Shown piece after piece: positions 3,001 through 20,739 of a DNA stretch of 64,000 nt. Numbering within the stretch: position 1 is the stretch's first letter; each line of letters opens with the position of its first letter. The notes under the pieces were generated by a model. That model was given only the letters and a program-made list of their open reading frames with translations, was not told the DNA's origin and searched no databases. The stretch covers positions 1 through 64,000 of the forward strand of contig OZ025800.1 of NCBI GenBank assembly GCA_964019425.1. The letters are read 5' to 3'. The position numbers were made by a program, and so were the translations under genes. This DNA comes from Flectonema sp. DT1601. Taxonomy: Eukaryota.

Positions 3001-5390
3001 GGGTTTGCGGGTTTGCGGGTTTGCGGGTTGCGGGTTGCGGTTTGCGGTTTGCGGGTTTGCGGGTTTGCGGGTTTGCGGGTTTGCGGTTGCGGGTTTGCGG
3101 GTTTGCGGGTTTGCGGGTTTGCGGGTTTGCGGGTTGCGGGTTTGCGGGTTTGCGGGTTTGCGGTTTGCGGGTTGCGGGTTTGCGGGTTTGGCGGGTTTGC
3201 GGTTTGCGGGTTTGCGGTTTGCGGGTTTGCGGGTTTGCGGGTTTGCGGGTTTGCGGGTTTGCGGGTTTGCGGGTTTGCGGGTTTGCGGGTTTGCGGGTTT
3301 GCGGGTTTGCGGGTTTGCGGGTTTGCGGGTTTGCGGGTTTGCGGGTTTGCGGGTTTGCGGGTTTGCGGGTTTGCGGGTTTTGCGGGTTTGCGGGTTTGCG
3401 GGTTTGCGGGTTTGCGGGTTTGCGGGTTTGCGGGTTTGCGGGTTTGCGGGTTTGCGGGTTTGCGGGTTTGCGGGGTTTGCGGGTTTGCGGGTTTGCGGGT
3501 TGCGGGTTTGCGGGTTTGCGGGTTTGCGGGTTTGCGGGTTTGCGGGTTTGCGGGTTTGCGGGTTTGCGGGTTTGCGGGTTTGCGGGTTTGCGGGTTTGCG
3601 GGGTTTGCGGGTTTGCGGGTTTGCGGGTTTGCGGGTTTGCGGGTTTGCGGGTTTGCGGGTTTGCGGGTTGCGGGTTTGCGGGTTTGCGGGTTTGCGGGTT
3701 TGCGGGTTTGCGGGTTTGCGGGTTTGCGGGTTTGCGGGTTTGCGGGTTTGCGGGTTTGCGGGTTTGCGGGTTTGCGGGTTTGCGGGTTTGCGGGTTTGCG
3801 GGTTTGCGGGTTTGCGGGTTTGCGGGTTTGCGGGTTTGCGGGTTTGCGGGTTTGCGGGTTTGCGGGTTTGCGGGTTTGCGGGTTTGCGGGTTTGCGGGTT
3901 TGCGGGTTTGCGGGTTTGCGGGTTTGCGGGTTTGCGGGTTTGCGGGTTTGCGGGTTTGCGGGTTTGCGGGTTTGCGGGTTTGCGGGTTTGCGGGTTTGCG
4001 GGTTTGCGGGTTTGCGGGTTTGCGGGTTTGCGGGTTTGCGGGTTTGCGGGTTTGCGGGTTTGCGGGTTTGCGGGTTTGCGGGTTTGCGGGTTTGCGGGTT
4101 TGCGGGTTTGCGGGTTTGCGGGTTTGCGGGTTTGCGGGTTTGCGGGTTTGCGGGTTTGCGGGTTTGCGGGTTTGCGGGTTTGCGGGTTTGCGGGTTTGCG
4201 GGTTTGCGGGTTTGCGGGTTTGCGGGTTTGCGGGTTTGCGGGTTTGCGGGTTTGCGGGTTTGCGGGTTTGCGGGTTTGCGGGTTTGCGGGTTTGCGGGTT
4301 TGCGGGTTTGCGGGTTTGCGGGTTTGCGGGTTTGCGGGTTTGCGGGTTTGCGGGTTTGCGGGTTTGCGGGTTTGCGGGTTTGCGGGTTTGCGGGTTTGCG
4401 GGTTTGCGGGTTTGCGGGTTTGCGGGTTTGCGGGTTTGCGGGTTTGCGGGTTTGCGGGTTTGCGGGTTTGCGGGTTTGCGGGTTTGCGGGTTTGCGGGTT
4501 TGCGGGTTTGCGGGTTTGCGGGTTTGCGGGTTTGCGGGTTTGCGGGTTTGCGGGTTTGCGGGTTTGCGGGTTTGCGGGTTTGCGGGTTTGCGGGTTTGCG
4601 GGTTTGCGGGTTTGCGGGTTTGCGGGTTTGCGGGTTTGCGGGTTTGCGGGTTTGCGGGTTTGCGGGTTTGCGGGTTTGCGGGTTTGCGGGTTTGCGGGTT
4701 TGCGGGTTTGCGGGTTTGCGGGTTTGCGGGTTTGCGGGTTTGCGGGTTTGCGGGTTTGCGGGTTTGCGGGTTTGCGGGTTTGCGGGTTTGCGGGTTTGCG
4801 GGTTTGCGGGTTTGCGGGTTTGCGGGTTTGCGGGTTTGCGGGTTTGCGGGTTTGCGGGTTTGCGGGTTTGCGGGTTTGCGGGTTTGCGGGTTTGCGGGTT
4901 TGCGGGTTTGCGGGTTTGCGGGTTTGCGGGTTTGCGGGTTTGCGGGTTTGCGGGTTTGCGGGTTTGCGGGTTTGCGGGTTTGCGGGTTTGCGGGTTTGCG
5001 GGTTTGCGGGTTTGCGGGTTTGCGGGTTTGCGGGTTTGCGGGTTTGCGGGTTTGCGGGTTTGCGGGTTTGCGGGTTTGCGGGTTTGCGGGTTTGCGGGTT
5101 TGCGGGTTTGCGGGTTTGCGGGTTTGCGGGTTTGCGGGTTTGCGGGTTTGCGGGTTTGCGGGTTTGCGGGTTTGCGGGTTTGCGGGTTTGCGGGTTTGCG
5201 GGTTTGCGGGTTTGCGGGTTTGCGGGTTTGCGGGTTTGCGGGTTTGCGGGTTTGCGGGTTTGCGGGTTTGCGGGTTTGCGGGTTTGCGGGTTTGCGGGTT
5301 TGCGGGTTTGCGGGTTTGCGGGTTTGCGGGTTTGCGGGTTTGCGGGTTTGCGGGTTTGCGGGTTTGCGGGTTTGCGGGTTTGCGGGTTTG
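1..5390 (+). repeat. (TTTGCGGG)n octamer tandem array, telomere-like
   Basis: Direct reading. Frequent 1-nt indel variants up to ~3670, essentially perfect from ~3670 to 5390. Confidence 0.98.
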
Positions 5391-5962
5391 AGAAAGACAA
5401 AGGAGAACCAAGTTAACACGAAGCAACTCATTCACGAAGGGGTAATGGGAAAACGGCACCGCATGCTTGTACAATTGCATGTTCGACCACGGCCTAAAAT
5501 CGGCCGGGGGAAAGGTTGGCACCGTCACAGGGGTAGGGCGGGTGGGAAAACGCTTTGCGTTAAGACCCTTCCTAGCCTGAATAAATGAGTACAATGAAAT
5601 AATGATAAGAGAACAGTAAAATGATAAATCTGAAATAATAACAAGAGAACAAAAATGATACTTAAACAACATTTAATGTTGATCAATGAAAAGGAAAATA
5701 TTATAAGAGTATATCGTACTTCACTTGCCTTTTGTGCAGTTCCCAGTCTGAGTGTTGGGAACCGCTCGGCATTCTCAGTGAAGTACTGTTGAAAAGGAAA
5801 AGTCATAAAGGAGAGTCTGATAAAAACAATCACACGAATTAACCACATAACAAGATACTAGCATCATAAGCCTCATGTCGTCTTAGCTTTCCCATTTTCT
5901 CAGCTGAATAAAATGATGATGAGAAAGACAAAGGAGAACCAAGTTAACACGAAGCAACTCAT

Positions 5963-20574: not shown

Positions 20575-20739
20575 TTTGCGGGTTTGCGGGTTTGCGGGTT
20601 TGCGGGTTTGCGGGTTTGCGGGTTTGCGGGTTTGCGGGTTTGCGGGTTTGCGGGTTTGCGGGTTTGCGGGTTTGCGGGTTTGCGGGTTTGCGGGTTTGCG
20701 GGTTTGCGGGTTTGCGGGTTTGCGGGTTTGCGGGTTTGC
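20572..20739 (+). repeat. (TTTGCGGG)n innermost array
   Basis: Direct reading. Confidence 0.97.

Follow-up and report, generated by a model that had tools for sequence, protein, structure and literature searches.

VIPER-like elements, a group within the order DIRS, carry gag, tyrosine recombinase (YR) and RT/RNase H (RT/RH) ORFs, according to the consulted parts of PMC6681497 and PMC12278014. In kinetoplastids, VIPER displays the order gag-YR-RT/RH, split direct repeats arranged as A1..B1-A2-B2 and a short C-rich spacer, together with solo A2+B2 units; such a unit, SIRE, consists of A2, a short unique spacer and B2 alone, and the same parts of PMC6681497 give no fixed repeat target for VIPER. 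TATE of Leishmania (Viannia), which has the same ORF order and split direct repeats, forms tandem clusters at GGG^TT in a G-rich repeat (consulted parts of PMC6681497 and PMC2696322), the insertion point being GGG^TTA according to the former. The consulted part of the review PMC2696322 states that TATE is accompanied by a TT duplication, that of PMC12278014 that there is no target-site duplication. Finally, TATE-labelled ORFs of Diplonema papillatum are mentioned in PMC10161547, which defers the identification of the elements and gives neither their ends nor their target in the text and supplements searched.

We analysed a stretch of 64,000 nucleotides, hereafter the window, that contains related elements. 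With good probability, it holds two VIPER-like YR retrotransposon families of what is likely a diplonemid genome, lying at GGG^TTT of a telomere-like octamer, (TTTGCGGG)n, where they were likely inserted by recombinase crossover of a cDNA circle junction with the repeat. Kinetoplastids already provide the element class, its repeats and the targeting of GGG^TT; the novelty lies in a VIPER-side case from a likely diplonemid, a different repeat and exact att-like sites in two distant families, along with a probable recoding cassette and an array polarity that is unexplained.

Layout of the cluster and anatomy of the elements

Element DNA alternates with octamer arrays up to 20.7 kb. A long (TTTGCGGG)n array on the plus strand opens the window (1..5389, at least 5.39 kb), its G-rich strand heading into the genes, and is followed on the same strand by arrays at 11282..11815 (~67 units), 17045..17164 (15 units), 17696..17943 (31 units) and, innermost, 20575..20738 (~20 units). 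Variant units of the long array, most of which lack one base of the G or T run, number 11–24 per 62–67 (18–36%) in every 500-bp bin to position 3500, and then 2, 0, 0 and 0; this drop near 3.5 kb fits an uncorrected read tail at the end of a contig, and real decay could account for it as well. Within the array preceding E2, six TTTTGCGGG variants at 11450–11711 form two groups of three, 219 bp apart, which reflect a local duplication. TTAGGG/CCCTAA matches the window 14 times, always singly and never in tandem.

Self-comparison of the window delimits five element pieces, E1 to E5, all coded on the minus strand, with split direct repeats A1 ... B1-A2-B2 whose copies are 99–100% identical. E1 (family 1, 5390..11281) and E2 (family 2a, 11816..17044) share the order A1-gag-YR-RT/RH-B1-A2-spacer-B2. 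In E1, the distal B2 is clipped by about 160 bp at 5389, and the 212-bp A1 (11070..11281) is identical to A2 at 5547–5758. Its gag-like ORF (8872..11058, 728 aa) is followed by a tyrosine recombinase ORF of 378 codons (7735..8871), which contains the R-K-H-R-H-Y set, and by an RT/RNase H ORF (5963..8965) that gives weak Pfam matches, lies in the −1 frame relative to gag and is open through the whole YR. The family 1 circle junction B1/A2 (5740..5761) bears the inverted repeat GTTCCC-12nt-GGGAAC, and the A2–B2 spacer (5530..5546, plus strand) is G-rich, hence C-rich on the coding strand. The family 1 gag also contains a long CAG/CAA tract at 9599–9789, read as a poly-Q run.

Among the element copies, only E2 is complete, the two copies of its A (286 bp) and of its B (285 bp) being each 100% identical. 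It comprises a gag-like ORF of 448 aa (15414..16760), a tyrosine recombinase ORF of 351 codons (14358..15413) with a predicted Cre-like fold, an RT/RNase H ORF (12640..15495) in the −1 frame relative to gag, and a circle junction (12390..12412) whose inverted repeat has GATTCCC-13nt-GGGAATC inside and a further arm of 9 bp outside. E3 (17165..17695) is a family 1 solo A+spacer+B of 531 bp with both ends at the target phase; it is 99.5% identical to E1 and corresponds to the definition of a SIRE-like solo unit. E4 (family 2b, 17944..20574) has intact repeats and has lost gag and YR; families 2a and 2b are 80% identical in DNA and 83% in RT, and the RT/RH ORF of E4 is 83% identical to that of E2. 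The deletion in E4, at 20408, fuses the A1 end directly to the RT frame and leaves a 555-aa RT/RH ORF intact. E5 (20739..20910, the end being approximate) is a decayed, family-1-like 5' gag remnant, 78% identical to E1, that joins unique DNA. No A repeat was found in E5, and a candidate A end at GTGTTGG 21020 was rejected, this heptamer occurring 22 times. The sequence-only reading had described four copies in the array in the same orientation: the orientation stands, while the copies prove to be one full element, one 3'-clipped, one solo unit and one deletion derivative, with a fifth remnant at 20739. The gag-YR-RT/RH order and the split direct repeats, from which it recognized the structure of the VIPER/TATE group, are present in both families.

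G-run A2–B2 spacers are found in all subfamilies (5530–5546, 12102–12123, 18198–18218), where they might act as a priming tract or form a G-quadruplex; a similar C-rich spacer tract can be read by eye in the T. cruzi VIPER in the consulted part of PMC6681497. Near-identical copies form clusters of 11 (family 1), 7 (2a) and 5 (2b) members, and the RT proteins of the window itself are recorded on a contig of 134,371 bp.

Beyond 21.5 kb, 19/20 ORF rows are on the minus strand, i.e. run towards the array, and Pfam identifies a kinase, a proline-racemase-family gene, CSN5 and PRP38 among the host genes. The region 22127–63999 is a one-way host-gene cluster, some genes of which appear to bear introns; it also includes, besides the proline-racemase-family gene (30524–31561), a ferric reductase, a 1996-aa Cys-rich protein and a channel-like ORF. 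Where homologues of the element proteins are named, nearly all come from Diplonema papillatum (5/28 YR matches and 19/84 RT matches, 35–48% identity). Because of these homologues and of the one-way gene cluster, the host is likely a diplonemid.

Recombinase, recoding and position relative to VIPER and TATE

An alignment of 20 YR sequences shows R197, K226, H286 and R290 to be invariant and H317 and Y331 near-invariant. The predicted model of the E2 YR (pLDDT 86) has Tre/Cre as its best Foldseek matches (E 8e-6, TMq 0.53). In Pfam, the YR has no match and the RT matches are all sub-threshold. Both families encode a tyrosine recombinase with a full catalytic set and a predicted Cre-like fold.

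Both gag ORFs (8874, 15416) end with AAT-TGA-ATC in frame with YR, and a canonical −1 slippery heptamer lies in frame upstream of the gag TGA, at a distance of 28 nt in family 1 (A-AAA-AAC at 8902) and 43 nt in family 2 (T-TTT-TTA at 15459). Each of these heptamers lies inside the RT/RH frame, which is itself −1 to gag, and in neither family does a stop interrupt this −1 frame along YR, a situation reproduced by 0/2000 synonymous shuffles per family. Given the background of 9 heptamers in 4458 codons, the chance of finding one in both families is about 0.003. A recoding cassette at the end of gag is probable. No significant RNA structure follows the heptamers, the folding z-scores of −0.37 and +1.92 leaving a frameshift-stimulating hairpin unsupported. 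Two Crithidia VIPER copies in the consulted supplement of PMC6681497 likewise display, by eye, a heptamer-TGA-YR succession at the end of gag; the word 'readthrough' is absent from the main text of that paper. Trans-splicing could supply the ORFs instead of recoding.

The elements of the window display the features of the VIPER-like group of the order DIRS, namely three ORFs (a gag-like one followed by YR and RT/RH, which overlap), direct repeats of the split type, absence of a duplication, and a YR with the catalytic residues and fold. In Ngaro/PAT-like elements, the YR comes after RT/RH; here, the YR core precedes the RT core. More specifically, the window proteins carry HSIKRGA in a short YR and RQRFILW in the RT, both VIPER-type. 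The VIPER motifs given in the consulted parts of PMC6681497 are HS[IL]KRGA and RRRFILW, and those of TATE, read by eye in one C. mellificae copy of its supplement, are PSIRKGA and RRRLITEP, which are absent from the window proteins. The TATE YR motif was found in 0 of the retrieved proteins, and the one protein that fit a loose RT pattern carries the VIPER-type motif. A profile search with an E cut-off of 1e-30 yielded 2,674 representatives, the best 150 of which gave an Angomonas deanei VIPER-type RT (P0324), 31% and 33% identical to the two window RTs (E 5e-67 and 1e-66). Of 10 proteins whose identity was looked up, P0324 alone bore a name. The same protein matches by eye, motif for motif, the Crithidia VIPER of the consulted PMC6681497 supplement. 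A tie in print between the name TcC31.12 and VIPER was not found in our searches. TcC31.12 is a name that we take to denote VIPER, from motifs compared by eye.

The RT trees comprise 172/206 candidate RTs and, in a smaller set, 45 hand-picked rows, and are midpoint-rooted with no named outgroup and no TATE sequence. In these trees, the window RTs group with D. papillatum copies (clade support 98), apart from Kinetoplastea; the TATE-labelled ORFs mentioned in PMC10161547, as far as its consulted text describes them, are of the same lineage as our elements. The two families are divergent, as the sequence-only reading had it: their proteins are 35–42% identical and their grouping as sisters is rejected (p-AU 4e-11), so that their shared targeting needs either ancestry or convergence. 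HSIKRGA, RQRFILW, the short YR and the 31–33% identical A. deanei RT point to elements sitting on the VIPER side and not on that of TATE, in a comparison whose tree has no TATE row. The earlier description of the elements as retargeted TATE-like relatives is not supported in that form, as the proteins carry the VIPER motifs and lack the TATE motifs. Compared to VIPER, the elements of the window differ by having exact ends in a repeat and a host outside Kinetoplastea.

Insertion site and crossover

Without exception, the seven intact element ends (7/7) map to GGG^TTT in the (TTTGCGGG)n arrays and share one orientation. The A ends read GTGTTGG / TTTG in family 1 (11280–81, 17694–95) and GTTAGGG / TTTG in family 2 (17042–44, 20572–74), and the B ends GCGGG / GAA (17162–65, 11813–16, 17941–44); the junctions at 5389 and 20739 are broken ends, off the GGG site. 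The seven intact ends described in the sequence-only reading are all where it had placed them. The phase of the cut is that of TATE and the GGGTT core is shared, but the target is the octamer and not the GGGTTA hexamer. If the four insertions are independent, the first one setting the phase, the chance that they share it is (1/16)^3 = 2e-4, or (1/16)^2 = 4e-3 with the 99.5%-identical family 1 pair counted once, the DNA-level ends being those of four insertions of one cluster in a window picked for that cluster.

To locate the crossover, we enumerated every donor cut in the internal B1/A2 junction against eight phases and two orientations of the array. Three equivalent solutions are left for family 1 and four for family 2, in one orientation and all within the G run, and GGG^TTT is admitted by all four insertions. 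The crossover homology amounts to GG in family 1 and GGG in family 2 and is confined to one side, a further G being part of the B end. The number of G is conserved, as previously proposed, but an in-register exchange of GGG predicts GCGGG+AACC and GTGTT+GGG and is contradicted by the observed 4+2 split. The enumeration agrees with the earlier statement that there is no target-site duplication at the four insertions, a difference from the TT duplication ascribed to TATE in the consulted part of PMC2696322. The product is also consistent with the conservative recombination of a circle that had been suggested, the circle being a putative intermediate.

A single solution has target and donor cut alike in both families; on the coding strand, its cuts are AAA^CCC for the target and TTC^CC for the donor. 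This solution fits because a tyrosine recombinase checks homology just 3' of its cut, and we infer that the YR cuts at these two positions. The circle junction forms an inverted repeat in both families and folds with z-scores of −2.0 to −4.8 across all three junctions; the junction pattern was derived from the junctions themselves, and 3/100 shuffles matched as often. The crossover lies in the right arm of this inverted repeat, whose arms are parted by integration. The repeat is likely the binding site of the YR, perhaps in the form of a folded single strand. Homology that is short and one-sided, along with an inverted repeat foldable as a single strand, also characterizes the YR reactions of integron attC sites and of the CTX phage; the present case differs in that it concerns a eukaryotic retroelement and that the folded substrate is only predicted. 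A requirement for folded ssDNA would, hypothetically, shield an integrated copy from renewed recombination, a suggestion made because every integrated copy retains an intact internal junction.

Octamer arrays elsewhere and the nature of the target

Proteins that gene callers had read through the array gave 23 matches, 16 of which were inspected, and 215 proteins were then scanned; the junctions outside the window are back-read from these predicted proteins, and are leads that may be splice artefacts. An identical family 1 A-end/array peptide (P0179) lies on a 515,557-bp contig that also carries three family 1 RTs; within P0179, a fragment of another family comes after the array, with its sense reversed. 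A family 2b RT broken into the C-strand repeat (P0112) lies on a contig of 306,017 bp. The octamer is also present on contigs of 1.3–3.5 Mb (P0174, P0176 and P0194), two of which match the size of contigs with related RTs. Several weak array-peptide matches are degenerate and probably unrelated. A LINE-type RT on a 146,500-bp contig (P0183) ends in a C-strand octamer peptide. At least seven further VIPER-like families were noticed (P0031, P0032, P0035, P0041, P0046, P0048, P0062), several with 10–28 near-identical members, and their contigs are often the same size as those of families 1 and 2. In viral contigs, neither a pattern of three octamers nor the RT alignment search found any match (0 in each case). 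The RT alignment search returned one 1.6-kb metagenome locus and one 1.8-kb contig in a bacterial MAG, and an Atlas search ranked Euglenozoa clusters first, a lead. The VIPER-like RT of the bacterial-MAG contig (L002:691–1818) is probably a eukaryotic contamination.

At a canonical telomere, the G-rich strand runs 5'–3' towards the chromosome end. Here it points into the genes; were position 1 a chromosome end, this polarity would be opposite to that of a telomere. We lean slightly towards an array that is the host telomere repeat in its normal polarity, the 21-kb block being an old telomere that became internal or was fused to a gene-bearing arm at E5. The octamer shares GGGTT with the kinetoplastid hexamer and is entered at the TATE phase (consulted parts of PMC6681497), family 2 ends in TTAGGG, and octamer-coded peptides occur on other contigs, some larger than 1 Mb and of the same size as contigs with related RTs. 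Moreover, the broken ends at 5389 and in P0112 share 2 bases with the repeat that they join and are antisense to the G strand, which is what a G-strand 3' end copying a template would produce. Such a history requires a rearrangement at E5 that is not visible in the window, and neither the octamer nor any diplonemid telomere unit was found in the mainly open-access literature searched. It concerns the target, and is therefore compatible with VIPER-like insertion as proposed here. A less favored but serious possibility is that the array is a non-telomeric satellite, centromere-like or at the end of a one-way gene cluster, where the assembly stops and where elements find a safe haven. The polarity, wrong for a telomere at position 1, the 19/20 ORF rows that run towards the array past 21.5 kb and the short arrays with unique-looking flanks on both sides in P0172 and P0194 all agree with a satellite, from which one would not expect the same unit in apparently different assemblies or the match to the TATE phase.

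The array is quite unlikely to be a true chromosome end of reversed polarity, in which the strand extending to the 3' end, and healing broken elements, is the C/A-rich one (CCCGCAAA), a structure for which we know of no precedent. The layout is telomere-like, with short arrays and elements inside, at least 5.4 kb of array outside and an error step resembling a read tail, and the C strand follows a 3'-clipped element at both broken ends of the window, in P0112 and in P0183, two of these junctions sharing the register CA^AACCC. However, this arrangement is seen in one contig, whose position 1 is assumed to be the contig end, the outside junctions were deduced from predicted proteins, so that some may stem from splice artefacts, and P0179 does not fit. 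The corresponding model is just as doubtful: CCCGCAAA would be added to broken 3' ends as a reversed-polarity telomere, and several VIPER families recombining a folded cDNA junction into AAA^CCC would build a retroelement-repeat cap. One may also argue that the shared phase goes back to an old insertion, or two, propagated through recombination of the array, or that the cluster is an assembly join of several arrays, without any current site specificity. The 99.5% identity of E1 and E3 and the ability of assemblers to make joins within perfect repeats lend themselves to this explanation, which we nevertheless regard as unlikely: families 1 and 2 are distant and not sisters, 2a and 2b are well separated in DNA, and a misjoin inside an array does not produce element/array junctions.

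With site-specific insertion of VIPER-like elements as the preferred explanation, the following scheme can be proposed. One RNA would yield Gag, Gag-RT/RH through −1 frameshifting and, where the UGA is read through, Gag-YR. As reverse transcription crosses the split repeats, it would remake the B1/A2 junction on a circle, and the YR would cut the C-rich strand, opening the target at AAA^CCC and the donor at TTC^CC, checking only 2–3 bases of homology 3' of the cut and integrating the element without duplication. The mosaic would then be built by repeated insertion, A1xA2 recombination (giving the solo unit) and microhomology joins.

To our knowledge, integration by a DIRS-order recombinase has never been reconstituted. 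The exact donor and target sites of such a recombinase, in two families about 40% alike, provide ready integration substrates, and the octamer is a candidate diplonemid telomere unit. Finally, VIPER-side targeting of GGG^TT outside kinetoplastids suggests that this specificity may have been present in the common ancestor of VIPER and TATE instead of being an oddity of Leishmania.
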